DNA of 64,000 bases from Escherichia phage VTCCBPA_322: the sequence record PP989839.1; one strand, written 5' to 3'. Made by a program: the position numbers and the translations under genes. Below are positions 1-6,098 of this stretch, piece by piece. The notes under the pieces were generated by a model. It was given only the letters and a program-made list of their open reading frames with translations. It was not told the DNA's origin and ran no database searches. Each line of letters starts with the position of its first letter. The first letter of the stretch is position 1.

Positions 1-1
1 C

Positions 2-268
2 GTTCTCAGAATCCTTACAGAATTCCTCAATACTTTTCTTACGCAGAGTCTCAGTCATAGCTGTTTCCTCTGCCAGTTTATTAACGAATGTATGCATTTC
101 TAATTTAGTACGAATGGCTTGTTTCTCTGCCATAGTACTTACATATGAATTAAGCATACCTACTGCTTTAGTTGCTGTACCGAATGTATCTGCAACAGTA
201 GTAGCAGCTGAGTTAACAGTACCAAGTAAAGTTCCTGCGGTCATACGTACAGTAGCTTGAGTAGTCAT
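2..268 (-). CDS. hypothetical protein, 3'-truncated at window edge
   Basis: ATG at 268-266 (MTTQATVRM...) with GGAG SD 8 nt upstream; frame stays open to coordinate 2 (...AMTETLRKKSIEEFCKDSEN). Absent from ORF track because it has no stop in the window. Confidence 0.4.
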   Translation of the reverse strand, partial: MTTQATVRMTAGTLLGTVNSAATTVADTFGTATKAVGMLNSYVSTMAEKQAIRTKLEMHTFVNKLAEETAMTETLRKKSIEEFCKDSEN

Positions 269-501
269 GATGATAGCTCCAATAGTTGATGATAGGACGA
301 CATGTCCATAACATGCGGAGCATGTGTAACGTGTAAGGTGGGGTAGGGTAGTGGCTACACCGTCAACATACCGGGGGGCTAGTTGAGTGTAAGGGTGTAG
401 CCCCAGCCACAACACTGTAGTCATACATAGCTATCACAATTTTGACATGCAAAAATATTATAGGCACTATCTCTATAAGCAGATAACTTTGAGGTATTAA
501 C

Positions 502-627
502 ATGAAAGATGGATGGGGTAACTACAATCCTACAGACCCTGAGAACTGGTTTCACTTTATTGCATGTGCCTGTGTCGCAGGATTCGTAGGTATTGTACTC
601 TTGCCACTGGTTCTACCTTACTTATAA
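502..627 (+). CDS. small hydrophobic peptide (41 aa, one predicted TM helix)
   Basis: ATG 502 with GAGGT SD 8 nt upstream, TAA 625-627; MKDGWGNYNPTDPENWFHFIACACVAGFVGIVLLPLVLPYL. Below the 60-aa track cutoff; followed by hairpin GGGGATA-TCTATC-TATCCCC (636-655). Confidence 0.25.
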   Translation: MKDGWGNYNPTDPENWFHFIACACVAGFVGIVLLPLVLPYL

Positions 628-790
628 ATACTATGGGGGATATCTATCTATCCCCTATTCATCATAGCGTTTGATACTTAAAACCTCACATAGCTTACCA
701 TTAACAAGCAATGGTCCACCTACTTCTACAAAAGCTAGGCTGTGTACTATCACTGGTTCAGGTAAGCCTTTGACTGTTACATACCACATA

Positions 791-1120
791 TTAATCCTTA
801 TAAGCAGTTAAATAGGAGGGAGCATACACCAAATGTGGAAAGTGAAGGGAATCACTCGTGGTGAAGGTAAGAGTGTACTTATCCGTATTCACATGCCAGG
901 GGGAATAAATATGGATAGGCCATGGTACTTCCTTTCCTGGTTCAAGAACTTCTACAATAACCCTCTTGTTTAGAATTAGTGTTAACCCTTTGACCTCATG
1001 AAGTGTTTGTTCATCCGGTACTAGGATAATAGGAGTAAGTCTACCAGGTACAAGGTCTTGCAAGATTGCATGGGTAGTGGGGTTAGGTCCACCAGCATAG
1101 CCTATCTTAGTAAGTTTCAT
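791..1120 (-). CDS. early-region paralog family protein (member 6 in transcription order)
   Basis: 109 aa; shares core motif with five neighbours (PIILVPDEQTLHEVKGLTLIL); overlaps upstream gene by 14 nt. Confidence 0.5.
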   Translation of the reverse strand: MKLTKIGYAGGPNPTTHAILQDLVPGRLTPIILVPDEQTLHEVKGLTLILNKRVIVEVLEPGKEVPWPIHIYSPWHVNTDKYTLTFTTSDSLHFPHLVYAPSYLTAYKD

Positions 1121-1454
1121 GAGATATAATCCTTACTCTTTTAAAATCTTTATTAGGTCTACCATCTATAGTAAGTCCAACGAATCCCTCGTCTATCCTT
1201 GGTTCAAAGAACAAGAATGCAGATTCACCAGCAGGTATCCATATGGATTCTCCTAGATTAAGGATGGTTATCTTAGCTGGGCTATTAAGTAGGAGGATGG
1301 AACCACGGGTACTATCTGCTAGCTCACCGAATAACATAAGCATATGACAGTCCTGCGGGAGTAACCACTCAATAGCTTTATTGATATTCTCGGAGTAAAC
1401 AGAGACTTCATCCTTATACTGATGAAGGTACATTACTCTATTCATATGGTGCAC
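1107..1454 (-). CDS. early-region paralog family protein
   Basis: 115 aa; divergent copy of family motif (HMLMLFGELADSTRGSILLL); overlapping tandem arrangement. Confidence 0.45.
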   Translation of the reverse strand: MHHMNRVMYLHQYKDEVSVYSENINKAIEWLLPQDCHMLMLFGELADSTRGSILLLNSPAKITILNLGESIWIPAGESAFLFFEPRIDEGFVGLTIDGRPNKDFKRVRIISHETY

Positions 1455-1765
1455 TCGTCGCTAGATAAATATGAGGTAGAAGGGTATAAGGTAATAAGTC
1501 TACCAGTTAGGGTAGTTACTACCATAGGTTCATTAGTGGATAGTATGTACACACTGGTGTGCTCTGGTATTTCTACGGAATCTTCCATCTTAATGAATTT
1601 GATAGGTTGCCCCAACATTAAGCAAGTACCAATGAACACTTCTGCTTCTTCACTTGGCTCATACAGGATAGTGGTAACTCTCCCCTTACCTGCCAGGATA
1701 TTATCCAGCGTATACGGGGATAGATAGCAAGTAGTAGCAAAGCTAATAAGGCAGTAAAGATGCAT
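1442..1765 (-). CDS. early-region paralog family protein
   Basis: 107 aa; family motif (TTILYEPSEEAEVFIGTCLML); AAGGAAG SD 7 nt upstream of ATG at 1765. Confidence 0.45.
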   Translation of the reverse strand: MHLYCLISFATTCYLSPYTLDNILAGKGRVTTILYEPSEEAEVFIGTCLMLGQPIKFIKMEDSVEIPEHTSVYILSTNEPMVVTTLTGRLITLYPSTSYLSSDECTI

Positions 1766-1768
1766 AGC

Positions 1769-2083
1769 TTACTTCCTTACATAGTAGTAATGGTATTCCT
1801 CATCCTCATAACGACTATCCCATTGGTAGTCATCTGATACCAACATAAAAGGTAGAGCATCATACGCACCACTATTGGTATAGACAGAAGGAGGAATGAT
1901 ACATACAACTTTACGGTCATTACCTGCTAAGAAGAGTTGACCCCTTACTTCATGATAATCCTCTAAGGTAGGAACCAGGATTACATGCTGAGGGTTGCTA
2001 TCTATGACTTCTTCTAAGGTGAAGTCCGTTGTGTATAAGGATTCCCCTTTAACAAAGCTGGGGGCGGTCAGTATGAATTTCAT
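1769..2083 (-). CDS. early-region paralog family protein
   Basis: 104 aa; motif HVILVPTLEDYHEVRGQLFL; AGGAAGGAAA SD upstream of ATG at 2083. Confidence 0.5.
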   Translation of the reverse strand: MKFILTAPSFVKGESLYTTDFTLEEVIDSNPQHVILVPTLEDYHEVRGQLFLAGNDRKVVCIIPPSVYTNSGAYDALPFMLVSDDYQWDSRYEDEEYHYYYVRK

Positions 2084-2447
2084 GATTGATTTTCCTTCCT
2101 TTGGGGATAGGTCTGAAGTAAATGGAAAGTGTTTTATTAAAGACGTTATGGTCAGCTATTAATTCCCAACCAGGTACTTTATAGAACCTAACTCCTGGGA
2201 AGAATATTTCAAAGCCTGCATACTCAGTAAGGTCATACACCACTGGTTCAGTGAGTATATGCGTATTGATTTGCAGGTTACTTAAAAAGAATGAGCCAAC
2301 TATCTTATGGGATTCTTCACAATCAGGTAAGAATACTACTTGCTTGTGTGTGATGAACTTACTTACTGCCTCTGGTTCTCCAAGGTAGTAGGGGTCTTGT
2401 CTACGTAGTACACCGGTAATATCAATATCGAAAGCGTAGATGCTCAT
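2049..2447 (-). CDS. early-region paralog family protein
   Basis: 132 aa; motif QVVFLPDCEESHKIVGSFFL; GGAGGT SD upstream of ATG at 2447; directly preceded by hairpin and T-run. Confidence 0.5.
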   Translation of the reverse strand: MSIYAFDIDITGVLRRQDPYYLGEPEAVSKFITHKQVVFLPDCEESHKIVGSFFLSNLQINTHILTEPVVYDLTEYAGFEIFFPGVRFYKVPGWELIADHNVFNKTLSIYFRPIPKGRKINHEIHTDRPQLC

Positions 2448-2460
2448 AATTACATACCTC

Positions 2461-2499
2461 CAGAAAAAGAAATGGGGTAGAGCCTCTCGACTCTACCCC
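2461..2499 (-). terminator. intrinsic terminator-like hairpin (9-bp stem GGGGTAGAG/CTCTACCCC) with T-run on - strand
   Basis: Stem 2474-2482 and 2491-2499, 8-nt loop; on - strand followed by ATTTCTTTTTCTG then the SD of the gene at 2447. Confidence 0.4.
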
Positions 2500-2647
2500 T
2501 TACCGTTTTCAATCACGGGTCAGTTCATCACCCTAGATACATGTGTATCGTTAGCCTACTAGGTAGGAAAGGAGCCGGGTAACCCTGACTGTAGAAGTTA
2601 TTAACTCTTTACGAGTACCGCCACTGTCTACTAGGCGGTATGACTAA

Positions 2648-2938
2648 TCACATCGTCACCATCATCCGAACACTGTCTTTACTTCGCCTGACGGAGACAC
2701 TATGAGGTAATTTTGTGAAGAACACAAGAGATGAAATAGACTTTTCTAAAGAGTAACTTTCTCTTGGTTCTAAGATCTTAATGCCTGGACGATTCTCTAA
2801 CAGCATCATCCCAGCTAATTCATGGTAGGAATCTTCATCATGTGTAATGATAATATCATCTGAAAGAATACCAGCCTTGGTATGGTCTAGCTCTTTGTAT
2901 TCATCTTTGGAGTCTTGGACTCTCATATAGATTCTCAA
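2648..2938 (-). CDS. early-region paralog family protein (first in transcription order)
   Basis: Motif DIIITHDEDSYHELAGMMLLEN matches family; TTG at 2938 has AAGGAG SD 6 nt upstream, first ATG at 2926. Confidence 0.45.
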   Translation of the reverse strand: MRIYMRVQDSKDEYKELDHTKAGILSDDIIITHDEDSYHELAGMMLLENRPGIKILEPRESYSLEKSISSLVFFTKLPHSVSVRRSKDSVRMMVTM

Positions 2939-2977
2939 AGGTTACTCCTTTTAGGAATAGGGTCATCGGAACATTAC

Positions 2978-2991
2978 ATACTATTTAGTAT
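2978..2991. promoter_or_regulatory. inverted repeat ATACTA-TT-TAGTAT in divergent intergenic region
   Basis: Near-perfect 14-bp palindrome 40 bp upstream of the - strand gene start at 2938; second hairpin GGGGT-ATCTC-ACCCC at 3048-3062 lies ~50 bp upstream of the + strand gene at 3110. Confidence 0.25.
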
Positions 2992-3109
2992 CATGAACTT
3001 TTTCTATATCATGACTAAAGTGTAACTGTATGGTATGGTTTCTTCAAGGGGTATCTCACCCCAAGAAAAGAATCTTCTTTAATAGACATAACTTTGTAGC
3101 GAGATAAGT

Positions 3110-3799
3110 ATGAGTGAACTAACTAAGCAGCAGATTGTTAATGCCCTACCTGCTAATTTCAAGAATAGTGTAACCCAGGAGTTGGTGGACACGATTAACA
3201 ACATTACCCAAGACCAACTGGTTGCTGAAGCATTCCGTGAAAACTTCATCTCTTACTCTGGAGTTATGAAGGAAGGTAAGTTTAAGACACAGGACTACAT
3301 GAATGCAGTTCAGTATGTGACTTACAAACATATGGGCTATTCAAATAAGGAAGCCTACTTCAAAACATTCCCTAACCGACAAGCAGAACTCGTAGCACGG
3401 GGAACCAGTGAGAAAGATATTAGTGCTTACGTGTCTGCTTACCACAGGGGTAAGTTAGTTAACCTCATCATGGAACAAAGTTTGGTTCCAGTGTGGATTG
3501 TGAACCAGGACAATTATCAGAAGGCAATCAATGTTCAGGTTGAACTGATGACTACAGCAGCAAGTGAGAAAGTAAGATGTGATGCAGCTAACTCTATCCT
3601 TACTCACTTGGCTAAACCGAAAGACCAGATAACAAATATTAACCTGGACCTGAGAGAGAACTCTGGGTTGACTGACCTCAAGGCAACACTTGCTGCATTA
3701 GCTGAGCAACAAATTAATGCAATCAATAGTGGTGTACCCACCAAAGAGGTTGCTGGTTCTAAACTAGTACGTGCAGATGAGGACATTACAGATGTCTGA
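3110..3799 (+). CDS. putative terminase small subunit
   Basis: 229 aa ORF immediately upstream of and overlapping the terminase large subunit gene; first gene of the + strand late block. Assignment is positional only. Confidence 0.4.
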   Translation: MSELTKQQIVNALPANFKNSVTQELVDTINNITQDQLVAEAFRENFISYSGVMKEGKFKTQDYMNAVQYVTYKHMGYSNKEAYFKTFPNRQAELVARGTSEKDISAYVSAYHRGKLVNLIMEQSLVPVWIVNQDNYQKAINVQVELMTTAASEKVRCDAANSILTHLAKPKDQITNINLDLRENSGLTDLKATLAALAEQQINAINSGVPTKEVAGSKLVRADEDITDV

Positions 3800-5381
3800 G
3801 TTAATTAAACAGGAACTAGATGAATGGCTAGACCAGGTGGATTACTCCCACCTTAACTCATCTAACTATGTTCCTAGTCAGTTTGCTCTTACCTTTGCCA
3901 ACTTTATTAAGTTGGTTAATGGCAAAGAGGGTGAATCCAACAAAACACCGCCAGTCCATTTGAAGATGTTGGATAAGATGATTAGCCCGAACCAGTATGT
4001 AGTTAACCTGTGTTTCCGTGGTGCAGGTAAGACTGCCGTGTTCATGGAATACTTTACCCTGTTCCTGGCAGTGTTTGGGCACTTACCAAGTCTGGGTAAG
4101 GTAGAAGGAATGATTTATGTATCTGACTCAATGGATAACGGTGCTAAGTCTGCACGTAAGAACATTGAGTTTCGTTACAAGAATAGTGAGTTCCTTCAGC
4201 AGTGGATACCTGAAGCTACCTTTACGGATAACCTATTAGAGTTCCGTAATGTAGAAGGACATCGACTGGGTGTTAAGCTGTTTGGTGCTAAGACAGGTCT
4301 TCGTGGTACGAAGATATATGGTAAACGTCCAACACTCTGTGTACTGGATGACTTGATTAGCGATGGGGATGCTAACTCCAAGACTAGCATGGAAGCTATT
4401 AAAGACACCGTTTATAAAGGCGTGAACCATGCTCTTGACCCAACACGTCGTAAAGTAATCTTCAATGGTACTCCCTTTAATAAGGAAGATATTATCATTG
4501 AAGCAGTTGAGTCTGGTGCATGGGATGTTAACGTATGGCCTGTATGTGAGAAGTTCCCTTGTAGCAGAGAAGAATTTCAGGGTGCATGGGATGACCGATT
4601 CTCTTACGACTACATCAAAGCCCAGTATGATATGGCAGTTAAGACGGGTAAGTTGGCTGGCTTCTATCAGGAACTTATGCTTCGTATTAGCTCTGAAGAT
4701 GAGAGACTGGTTCAGGATAGTGAGATTAAATGGTATAGCAGACAGCAGCTACTAAGGATGAAGTCCTGCTACAACTATTATATTACAACTGACTTTGCTA
4801 CTTCGGAGAAACAGACTAGTGACTACAGTGTCATTTCAGTTTGGGCTTATAGTTCTAATGGAGATTGGTTCTGGGTTGATGGTGTGGCTAATCGTCAGCT
4901 TATGGATAAAAACTTCGATGACTTGTTCCGTCTGGTTCAGGAATACCAACCACAAAACGTTGGTGTCGAAATTACAGGTCAGCAGGGTGGATTCATCTCC
5001 CTTCTTCAGAAAGAAATGATTAACCGTAATGTCTTCTTTAACTTTGCATCTTCTGAAGGTGGTAAGCCAGGCATACGTCCTGTAACCTCTAAGCTGTCAC
5101 GCTTTAACCTAGTAGTTCCATGGTTCAAAGCTGGTAAGATGTACTTCCCGGAAGAGTTGAGAGATACAACTATTATGGGTCTGTTCATGGGCCAGATAAA
5201 ACTGGCTACCATTAATGGAATCAAAGGTAAGGATGACTGTATTGATACTATCTCCATGCTGGGATATCTCAACCCTTGGAAACCACAAGCAGGTATGACT
5301 ATGGTGGATAACAAGGGTGACCCTATGTGGGATGATGAAGAAGAAGATAGTGTTAACCCTCTACGTTCATATATTGTGTGA
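3792..5381 (+). CDS. terminase large subunit
   Basis: Walker A-like CFRGAGKTAV, Walker B-like LCVLDDLISD, acidic C-terminal nuclease-like region; ATG 3792 overlaps upstream stop (ATGTCTGA); track start 3771 is GTG. Confidence 0.8.
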   Translation: MSELIKQELDEWLDQVDYSHLNSSNYVPSQFALTFANFIKLVNGKEGESNKTPPVHLKMLDKMISPNQYVVNLCFRGAGKTAVFMEYFTLFLAVFGHLPSLGKVEGMIYVSDSMDNGAKSARKNIEFRYKNSEFLQQWIPEATFTDNLLEFRNVEGHRLGVKLFGAKTGLRGTKIYGKRPTLCVLDDLISDGDANSKTSMEAIKDTVYKGVNHALDPTRRKVIFNGTPFNKEDIIIEAVESGAWDVNVWPVCEKFPCSREEFQGAWDDRFSYDYIKAQYDMAVKTGKLAGFYQELMLRISSEDERLVQDSEIKWYSRQQLLRMKSCYNYYITTDFATSEKQTSDYSVISVWAYSSNGDWFWVDGVANRQLMDKNFDDLFRLVQEYQPQNVGVEITGQQGGFISLLQKEMINRNVFFNFASSEGGKPGIRPVTSKLSRFNLVVPWFKAGKMYFPEELRDTTIMGLFMGQIKLATINGIKGKDDCIDTISMLGYLNPWKPQAGMTMVDNKGDPMWDDEEEDSVNPLRSYIV

Positions 5382-5387
5382 GGAACC

Positions 5388-6098
5388 ATGCAAAAATTAT
5401 CGGAAGTATACCGTGGTTTAGCACTAAGTACCTTGAAGGGTACTGGTGCAGTCACGGATGATAGATTAGGTATTGAACCAGATAGTAAGCCTGAAATATT
5501 GGCAGCTATTAATGAAGGGTTGGTTCGACTACATAGTCGTTTCCCCCTTAAGACTAATAGCTGCATTGTGGAGATGAAGGAAGGACGTACTGATTATCCT
5601 CTTCAATCCAAGTATGCTTACTCCAGATTTACTAAACCTACTCTTGAGATTCAGTATCCGTACATCATGGATGGGTTCATGAAACCTTTCCAGGATGATG
5701 TTATTAAAATCTTAAATGTGTTTGATAACTCAGGGAACCGACGTAGACTGAACGACGATTCAGACCCTCGTGCTATCTTCACTCCACGGCCTGATACTAT
5801 TCAGTGTATGCGACCTCGACACTTTGAGGCACTTAACGTAACGTATCAAGCTAAGCACCCAGTTCTTACGGGTGATGAAGAACAGGAAGTTGACTTAGCA
5901 GATACGCTAATGACGGCACTTCATAATTGGGTGGGTTATCGTTACCACACTGGTTTGAATACTCCTGAAGCTAACGCTAAGGCAGCAGAGTATCTGCAAA
6001 CGTATGAAAGCATCTGTGGTGAGGTTGTTGATTATGACCTGGCTAATGGAAGTATTTCAATTACCGAAACTAAATTTGAACAACGAGGATGGCGATGA
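5388..6098 (+). CDS. hypothetical virion-associated protein
   Basis: 236 aa; GAGGAA SD before ATG 5388; between terminase and tail genes. Confidence 0.4.
   Translation: MQKLSEVYRGLALSTLKGTGAVTDDRLGIEPDSKPEILAAINEGLVRLHSRFPLKTNSCIVEMKEGRTDYPLQSKYAYSRFTKPTLEIQYPYIMDGFMKPFQDDVIKILNVFDNSGNRRRLNDDSDPRAIFTPRPDTIQCMRPRHFEALNVTYQAKHPVLTGDEEQEVDLADTLMTALHNWVGYRYHTGLNTPEANAKAAEYLQTYESICGEVVDYDLANGSISITETKFEQRGWR

Follow-up and report, generated by a model that had tools for sequence, protein, structure and literature searches.

At one end of a 64,000-nucleotide (nt) stretch from Escherichia phage VTCCBPA_322 (PP989839.1; the whole stretch is called the window in the following) six small open reading frames (ORFs), named A to F here, follow one another on the minus strand between positions 791 and 2938. 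The initial annotation had described them as a tandem array of six divergent paralogous genes, and all six ORFs are present as it had placed them; in public records all of them carry the label "hypothetical protein". A megablast search with positions 1–6000 of the window returned 98 phage records, the best being that of Shigella phage pSb-1 (identity 91.9%, query coverage 97%) and the others G7C-like coliphages of the genus Gamaleyavirus, family Schitoviridae. Judged by these matches the window belongs to Gamaleyavirus, i.e., to the G7C-like Schitoviridae. The features of the locus are collected in Table 1.

The tight packing of the genes, their overlaps and a Shine–Dalgarno site in front of each ORF had been noted before and can be read directly off the minus strand. 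E and D overlap by 35 nt and B and A by 14 nt, a further ORF of 44 amino acids (aa) begins one base after A, and F stands isolated about 200 nt upstream of E. Because the stop codon of C overlaps the ATG at 1445 as ATGA, B most likely starts at this ATG (112 aa) rather than at the GTG at 1454; orthologs of B start with MNRV. For F a TTG start fits both the spacing to an AAGGAG sequence and the N-terminus of N4 gp70 (MRLFY versus MRIYM), and the start is probably TTG 2938 (96 aa) and not the publicly annotated ATG 2926 (92 aa). The array proteins have about 95–133 aa and are soluble, mostly mildly acidic (isoelectric points mostly 4.5–6.5) and of the alpha/beta type.

Table 1. Features at the array locus of the window
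Feature	Position	Strand	Description
A	791-1120	-	109 aa; family member; AlphaFold2 model and hhalign A-F 3.5e-8
B	1107-1454	-	115 aa; most divergent family member; lacks the Pro and His of the motif
C	1442-1765	-	107 aa; family member corresponding to the body of G7C gp71.2; lacks the His of the motif
D	1769-2083	-	104 aa; family member corresponding to G7C gp71.1
E	2049-2447	-	132 aa; gp71-like, ortholog of N4 gp71; leads the coupled operon
F	2648-2938	-	96 aa with the probable TTG start; gp70-like, monocistronic, ortholog of N4 gp70
gp72-like ORF	655-789	-	44 aa; last gene of the operon, outside the family; own AGGA Shine-Dalgarno site
Operon-closing terminator-like hairpin	636-655	-	from the terminator scan; about 230 nt ahead of the terminal repeat
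Intrinsic terminator (predicted)	2464-2499	-	stem 2499-2474 with T-run as far as 2464; adjacent to the Shine-Dalgarno sequence of E
Structured non-coding RNA element (candidate)	2448-2647	-	hairpin H1 2639-2634/2622-2617; pseudoknot 2631-2627/2595-2591; further hairpins; terminator
Sigma70-like promoter of F	3019-3047	-	TTGAAG (3047-3042), 17-nt spacer, TACACT (3024-3019); read from the sequence
Divergent F/TerS control region	2939-3109		includes conserved hairpin GGGGTGAGATACCCC (3062-3048) and the F leader
Start of terminal repeat	1-410	-	virion RNA polymerase promoter P1 hairpin and 5' part of gp1; blastn to G7C

In pairwise comparison the six proteins are only 16–34% identical. Smith–Waterman alignments evaluated against 2000 shuffles were significant for A–D and A–F (p ~1e-5) and for D–E, B–C, A–C and C with N4 gp71 (p 5e-4 to 5e-3). 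For profile–profile comparisons with hhalign we used per-gene ortholog sub-alignments of 8 to 94 sequences each, taken from related loci and from database matches. The P-values were 3.5e-8 for A–F, 2.1e-6 for D–E, 3.6e-6 for C–E, 4.9e-6 for A–D, 3.1e-5 for B–F, 6e-5 for B–C and 7e-5 for A–E, and all of these alignments keep one common register around an invariant glycine. With column-shuffled controls (n = 240) the lowest P-value was 0.007. Some pairs (B–D, B–E and C–D) were not significant when taken singly. The network of significant hhalign links therefore joins all six genes in one family, and we conclude that the six ORFs are real genes and true paralogs of each other.

The core motif that had been read from the array is found in all six proteins, but in a looser form than originally worded. 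As we find it, the motif consists of a hydrophobic strand followed by (P)-D/E-x-E-x-x-(H)-x-h-x-G-x-h-h-L. Among 40 family members only the glycine is invariant; the histidine is missing in B and C and the proline in B and F. On an AlphaFold2 (AF2) model of A, built from a 40-sequence family alignment (predicted local distance difference test score, pLDDT, 88.9; predicted template modelling score, pTM, 0.80), the order of elements is strand, strand, strand, helix (residues 37–49), strand, two long strands and a C-terminal helix. The motif extends from the end of strand three through the turn and along the first helix, which contains the invariant glycine. What the copies share is this strand-to-helix junction together with the glycine helix, and their N- and C-terminal thirds vary. 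In the model the motif reads as the core of the fold rather than as an obvious catalytic site, and a ligand or metal site at the strand–helix junction is conceivable. A cupin-like barrel, which the pattern G-x-h-h-L ... h-x-h-L-E-P-G-x-x-h-x-h-P had brought up, was discarded, as AF2 places the motif on a strand–helix–strand crossover.

A model of B, built from B- and C-type sequences only (pLDDT 78.3, pTM 0.74), has the same order of elements as that of A. When searched against BFVD it matched the E-type protein of OLB145 (E 1.4e-6), the D-type protein of EC1-UPM (probability 1.00) and the A-type protein of PhAPEC7 (template modelling score 0.57–0.61), and the BFVD entries that it matched are also those found with the model of A; A-, D- and E-type orthologs are among them. 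Judged by element order and these common matches rather than by direct superposition, the family appears to have one common predicted fold. According to Foldseek against BFVD this fold extends to N4-like phages of Achromobacter, Klebsiella and Pseudomonas. Almost all structural matches that are named by organism are N4-like phages, the sole other match below E 0.1 being a marginal one to a hypovirus protein. In the PDB the fold has no match by Foldseek, and none was found by sequence either.

It would be conceivable that the six ORFs are unrelated, or not genes at all, and that small AT-rich ORFs resemble each other by chance, as the low pairwise identity and some singly non-significant pairs might suggest. 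The linked profile matches in one register against clean shuffled controls, the confident AF2 models with matching topology, ratios of nonsynonymous to synonymous substitution rates (dN/dS) well under 1 and the orthologs in many phages speak against it, and we consider this explanation, which was hardly credible, refuted by these tests. The paralogy of the array is thus upheld by the profile–profile P-values, the shuffled controls and the shared fold; neither a lack of significant alignments nor unrelated folds, the outcomes named beforehand as refuting it, was found.

The initial annotation did not recognise the family, and in Pfam, NCBIfam, PADLOC and the PDB (by sequence and with Foldseek) we likewise obtained no significant match. 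The best Pfam model for A, DUF5068 (E 0.1), remained below threshold with 12.8 bits against a cut-off of 26.9 bits. Pfam, NCBIfam, PADLOC and the PDB, none of which is a dedicated anti-defence library, gave no homology to known defence or anti-defence families, nor did the array proteins match any catalytic family in them. A word-indexed search yielded 459 sequences, and those listed are close orthologs mostly residing on contigs of about 70–73 kb; as a survey of the whole family this search was set aside, since it gave only close orthologs of A and C and an exhaustive search of representatives was needed. An exhaustive HMMER search of 1.84 billion representative proteins gave 30 clusters at E <= 1e-3, mostly of 94–133 aa plus two shorter fragments. 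Wherever the source of a family member could be identified it was an N4-like phage, and we hold it as firm that the family is restricted to phages and that its predicted fold is unmatched. One C-type ortholog (P0061) is listed under Enterococcus faecium, as a hypothetical protein from a contig of 2.76 Mb; contamination or mis-assembly with coliphage sequence is the most likely explanation.

Positions 1–404 of the window are the reverse complement of positions 6–412 of G7C, where the annotated, gp1-carrying terminal repeat of that phage begins (blastn), and the right end of G7C aligns to positions 170–494. Since the window begins inside the terminal repeat and gp1, the source record is circularly permuted with respect to the physical genome. 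Beyond the array the plus strand carries the genes for the small and the large terminase (TerS and TerL) and then for a 30-kDa adaptor protein. The array is divergent from this terminase operon and forms the last unique sequence ahead of the right terminal repeat. From this arrangement we place the array, as a unit transcribed rightward, at the physical right end of the genome, between the TerS gene and the right terminal repeat, at the locus of gp70–gp72 in N4. It adjoins the early region solely where a record is circularly permuted, as in the case of pSb-1. A had also been considered as a homolog of gp1 of N4 and G7C, which is of equal size and lies beside the repeat; BLASTP shows no similarity between them.

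This position bears on the proposal of the initial annotation that the genes sit where N4-like phages place their early genes. In the N4 type the early genes make up the leftmost ~10% of the physical genome, the left end enters the cell first, entry is not complete until the middle transcription machinery has been produced, and late transcripts run leftward (PMC4496689); the rightward gp70–72 unit is given no transcription class in this work (PMC4496689). We scanned the window for hairpin promoters of the virion RNA polymerase (vRNAP) with a pattern derived from N4 P1–P3 and G7C, in which two stem halves enclose a TCC or TTC loop and TTATGGA follows. The 64 kb contain it once, centred at about 318 on the minus strand upstream of gp1 (ACATGC-TCC-GCATGT-TATGGAC); between 600 and 3120, and so in the array, it is absent. 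In favour of early host-takeover or anti-defence genes, transcribed by the injected vRNAP right after infection, the array genes are small, lie on the strand of the early genes, neighbour them in circular maps and evolve fast. But the array is located at the physical right end, the last part to enter the cell (PMC4496689), it has a conserved sigma70-like promoter in place of a vRNAP hairpin, and a terminator-like hairpin separates it from the terminal repeat. An early role of this kind is already disfavoured and seems very unlikely to us; the position, the promoter and the missing vRNAP hairpin do not support the array as early in the N4 sense.

In the sigma70-like promoter upstream of F, the arrangement TTG-17-TAGACTTTAG is kept in position in N4, Klebsiella phage KP8, Achromobacter phage Axy12 and the Pseudomonas phages inbricus and Zuri. 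The whole region between F and TerS (2939–3109) has 96.3% nt identity over 10 Gamaleyavirus loci, compared with 93.8% for TerS/TerL, and can be aligned across genera. Conserved across six genera are the block TTG-17-(G)TTAGACTTTAG and a leader (...CTCCTTACAATAGTAAGACAGAGACA.GGGGAGCCTATTG...); the 5' leader of F is conserved in sequence, and we found no convincing structure in it. The motif TTAsACTTTAG had been a candidate for a repeated phage promoter and was dropped, having 3 matches in the 64 kb where 4 are expected by chance.

The hairpin and T-run that had been noticed to set F apart from the other genes were recovered by a terminator scan as a terminator-like site, and the T-run stops three bases short of the GGAGG of E. 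The site has a GC-rich hairpin, a T-run and compensatory changes, as expected for a Rho-independent terminator, and its stem covaries across lineages (GGGGTAGAG/CTCTACCCC, GGGACTAG/CTAGTCCC, GGGAGCC/GGCTCCC). It belongs to a 200-nt spacer between F and E which is better conserved than the genes around it: over ten Gamaleyavirus loci the nt identity is 95.6%, versus 75–88% for the array genes and 93.8% for TerS/TerL, and in 56 public records the spacer is 93–98.5% identical. Its folding is better than that of all 200 shuffles (z = -3.9), and it can be aligned to the equivalent gaps in N4, KP8, Jgk1, Moo19, Axy12 and inbricus.

The core of the predicted structure is a pseudoknot, a hairpin (H1) whose loop pairs with a downstream segment, and its helices covary (GUAGA/UCUAC, GGAGU/ACUUC, GCGGA/UCCGC). 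Over the whole element 89.9% of cells are paired, versus 32–49% in slid controls, and there are thirteen pairs with double changes versus 2–5. For H1 and the pseudoknot, for which Achromobacter and Pseudomonas phages are included, 97.4% of cells are paired versus 36–65%, with 12 double-change cells versus 0–2. As the helices were derived from the window sequence itself, the paired percentages are biased upward; the compensatory changes are free of this bias. The H1 hairpin motif occurs once per genome and always after a gp70-like gene. A scan of IMG/VR with a 15-base H1 pattern was too unspecific to be used, with at least 120 matches in contigs of all sizes. Rfam 15 has nothing in 2448–2647, and elsewhere in the scanned stretch it gave only a chance-level miRNA match (E 0.76). 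A role of the pseudoknot as a signal for read-through or frameshifting at the stop codon of F was rejected: N4 has an in-frame TAA behind the TGA, and the knot of Axy12 and inbricus is situated ~75 nt past the stop. We regard 2448–2647 as a candidate for a new phage cis-regulatory RNA or a small RNA derived from a 3' untranslated region (3'UTR). There is no room for a promoter between the terminator and E, and the operon E–A–gp72 would therefore be transcribed by read-through, so that expression of E, D, C, B, A and the gp72-like ORF is presumably gated in cis by the terminator.

The genes at both sides of this spacer have counterparts in N4. F matches N4 gp70 over its full length (BLASTP E 2e-23 in a small database, 33% identity), E matches N4 gp71 over 117 aa (BLASTP E 5e-8), and the 44-aa ORF is 68% identical to N4 gp72. 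In the literature we found no statement that gp70 and gp71 of N4 are paralogs, and no function or transcription class for gp70–72; looking for screens of accessory genes or transposon insertions we likewise came across nothing about the gp70–72 locus. G7C has four members, gp70, gp71, gp71.1 (D, 82% identical) and gp71.2 (C). The last of these has a C-type body with the C-terminal tail of A (...SSYLTAYK), as if paralogs had recombined and left a deletion scar. By the order of the genes D, C, B and A are extra copies placed between the gp71 ortholog E and the gp72 homolog. The 44-aa gp72-like ORF occurs in 2 of the 10 compared Gamaleyavirus loci and is missing in G7C.

The initial annotation had suggested a profile search for copy-number variation in related phages, and such variation is extensive. 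We scanned the fetched loci with the family hidden Markov model (HMM), whose matches were confined to the array, and found 0 to 7 copies per locus: 2 in N4, 4 in G7C, 6 in most Gamaleyavirus, 5 each in KP8 and Jgk1, at least 6 in Moo19, and 2, 1 and 0 in the loci L017, L016 and L018, respectively. In other genera gp70/gp71-like genes lie at the same locus in KP8, Moo19, Jgk1, Axy12 (genes 078–080), inbricus (two genes) and Zuri (gp97–gp101, five in tandem ahead of the terminal repeat); compared with the TerS of the window, those of Axy12, inbricus and Zuri reach no more than 57–70% identity. Litunavirus Ab09 has no member at the locus, and Ithacavirus FSL SP-058, whose ORFs were compared without the family profile, gave no match there. 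In this Salmonella phage (L025 1034–2677) ten tRNA genes lie beside the terminase operon in place of gp70/gp71-like genes. Most widespread is a layout with a single gp70-like and a single gp71-like gene, which is probably also the ancestral state; in Gamaleyavirus the gp71 side has been expanded to five copies (E, D, C, B and A).

How copies are replaced can be read from L016, a Gamaleyavirus-like contig whose TerS is 90% identical. Here the gp70-like gene and the RNA element are retained and the gp71-like array is swapped for a single ORF (5756–6079, minus strand) coding for an unrelated protein of 107 aa with an HELNH (HExxH) motif and no Pfam match. The tail ...PSYLTAYK(D) of A falls on a conserved junction (window 791–822; L005 7671–7696; L016 5756–5780), and the same junction also ends G7C gp71.2 and the HExxH ORF of L016 (...PSSYLTAY). 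It looks like a fixed 3' boundary for cassette exchange, and the swap in L016 with the same 3' junction shows an exchange of cassettes between conserved flanks. According to these sequence comparisons copies have been gained, lost and swapped between the flanks. The array of UE-S5a contains an annotated 109-aa ORF (L001 922–1251) which the family HMM does not match, and arrays can therefore also hold inserts from outside the family.

We computed dN/dS pairwise and gene-wide among orthologs by the Nei–Gojobori method (NG86). The array genes have values of 0.13–0.38, versus 0.02–0.03 for TerS, TerL and gp67, and their synonymous divergence is higher as well. F has 0.23, E 0.19 and C 0.38, the highest of the array; C has also the lowest nt identity (75%). 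In every pair the ratio is below 1, the maximum being 0.89 for a pair of C. The array genes are constrained 5–15 times less than their terminase neighbours. The diversifying selection that had been suggested is not borne out by gene-wide values which indicate purifying though relaxed selection; that the genes evolve fast is confirmed by ratios above those of their neighbours and by the variable copy number. Being under purifying selection the array genes are therefore functional. The array is a hotspot of divergence flanked by ultra-conserved non-coding sequence.

The explanation that in our opinion fits these data best is that the array is a functional set of gp70/gp71-family genes that serves as a gated accessory set, and we give this explanation as a whole an even chance. 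A sigma70-type promoter, which is conserved across genera, would drive F alone. The F transcript would run into the conserved pseudoknotted RNA and the strong terminator set against the ribosome-binding site of E, and the translationally coupled operon E–D–C–B–A–gp72 would be reached only by read-through of the terminator. The proteins would be non-enzymatic binding modules on a conserved scaffold, with each copy tuned to a different target in the host or a competitor, and they would come into action at middle or late times, not before the genome has entered the cell completely. Taken together they would most likely be an accessory host-modulating or counter-defence set. That they are binding modules is suggested by the rapid turnover, the cassette exchange, the mild acidity and the absence of enzyme signatures. 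The anatomical part of this explanation is very probable, and the functional part is tentative.

Several observations weigh against the gated accessory set. Homology provides no evidence for any function (Pfam, NCBIfam, PADLOC, PDB). The promoter of F has 8 of 12 consensus matches and scores under the threshold of the scan tool, and we found no transcriptome of N4 or of any Gamaleyavirus in the literature. The conserved acidic residues and the histidine at the junction could be a ligand or metal site and not purely structural. The anti-defence hotspot known from N4-like phages is at another place, with the primase-polymerase on one side and the vRNAP on the other (bioRxiv 10.64898/2026.06.04.730250). 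Finally, gp70/gp71-like genes are kept across Schitoviridae subfamilies whose TerS is only 57–70% identical, and this retention is at least as compatible with a phage-intrinsic role as with a host-specific accessory one.

Such an intrinsic role of the gp70/gp71 pair is the main rival. The pair would have a conserved function tied to its position, for example in handling the right end and the terminal repeat, in replication or packaging at the concatemer junction or in tuning the host RNA polymerase for late transcription, and the extra copies would be sub-functionalised duplicates. The genes, the promoter, the leader and the RNA element are indeed found at the same locus in Enquatrovirinae, Rothmandenesvirinae and Zurivirus, the locus adjoins the terminase genes and the terminal repeat, and its non-coding parts outdo TerS and TerL in conservation. 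A position-bound function is harder to reconcile with the lack of a match in Litunavirus Ab09 and, as far as the comparison without the family profile goes, in Ithacavirus FSL SP-058, with L018 having no member and L016 only the gp70-like gene in a copy-number range of 0 to 7, and with proteins that evolve 5–15 times faster than their core neighbours. We consider this role possible, if rather unlikely. The acidic/histidine site leads to another suggestion, that the proteins are sponges for small molecules or small enzymes, which might for instance sequester immune signalling nucleotides as the Tad and Acb proteins do. Asp/Glu-x-x-His is conserved at the C-terminal end of a strand and the start of a helix, which is typical of ligand sites in Rossmann-like crossovers, the size is ~100 aa, and several sponges are known in N4-like phages. 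However, B and C lack the histidine and the glycine alone is invariant, there is no match in sequence or fold to Tad, Acb or any solved protein, and the sponges known from N4-like phages are located in another hotspot. We regard sponges or small enzymes as quite unlikely.

With the gated accessory set as the preferred explanation, a more far-reaching version can be formulated. The right end of the Schitoviridae would be a conserved regulatory cassette made up of a gp70-like gene, a hitherto undescribed pseudoknot RNA that responds to a signal or acts on the polymerase to modify it, and a terminator. The cassette would gate an array of exchangeable novel-fold proteins, and every copy would, late in infection, neutralise a host immunity or host factor of its own. 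In this full form the proposal is speculative and unlikely to be right; if true, the cassette would represent a new class of phage cis-regulatory RNA together with a new family of counter-defence proteins. Phages of the N4 type are abundant, and therapy cocktails make use of them. Independent of this version, six "hypothetical proteins" from six PHROGs are united in one family whose predicted fold has no PDB match by Foldseek, and this family, which grows and shrinks in the manner of an arms-race locus, lies behind a pseudoknot RNA that is ultra-conserved and covaries. The early-gene reading, which rested only on the way circularly permuted records are drawn, is corrected. The array offers a defined target for deletion and host-range work, and the RNA is a candidate new phage regulatory RNA. 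As a kind, a lineage-specific accessory multigene array, the family is modestly novel; what was least to be expected is the pseudoknot RNA.

Between the array and the terminal repeat there is one more small ORF on the opposite strand (502–627, plus strand; 41 aa). It has a GAGG Shine–Dalgarno site and a hydrophobic C-terminal half (...FIACACVAGFVGIVLLPLVLPYL), and its sole Pfam match is a very weak holin-like one (E 0.097). The stretch around it (411–654) was found in 3 of the 10 loci.

In PHROGs each array protein matches one of the families 7213, 9160, 11661, 12099, 12606 and 16338 ("unknown function") end to end with E 1e-44 to 1e-63, F corresponding to phrog_7213 and E to phrog_9160, and D cross-matching phrog_16338. 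There they are six separate families, whereas our analysis unites them in one superfamily with what appears to be one fold. The anti-defence hotspot of N4-like phages (Acb4-Sequestin, Bes1, Bes2, Tad2 and Tad3; bioRxiv 10.64898/2026.06.04.730250) resembles the array in being a variable island of small genes with redundancy of adjacent genes. It occupies a different locus with unrelated families, to which we saw no homology of the array family, and as an account of the array the hotspot paper was put aside because it concerns that other locus. In its layout of a structured RNA, an intrinsic terminator and then the ribosome-binding site of the controlled operon, the spacer between F and E is like riboswitch and attenuator platforms and antitermination RNAs such as put of HK022. 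The likeness is one of layout, no Rfam family matches the spacer, and the element described here is at the same time the 3' end of the F mRNA and could equally be a 3'UTR-derived small RNA. Among the closest known systems is also that of N4 itself, where the uncharacterised gp70 (YP_950548) and gp71 (YP_950549) agree with the array in locus, strand, order, the ~200-nt structured spacer with its terminator and the terminal gp72 homolog; N4 has two family members in the order gp70, gp71, gp72, whereas the phage studied here has six, in the order F, E, D, C, B, A and the gp72-like ORF.

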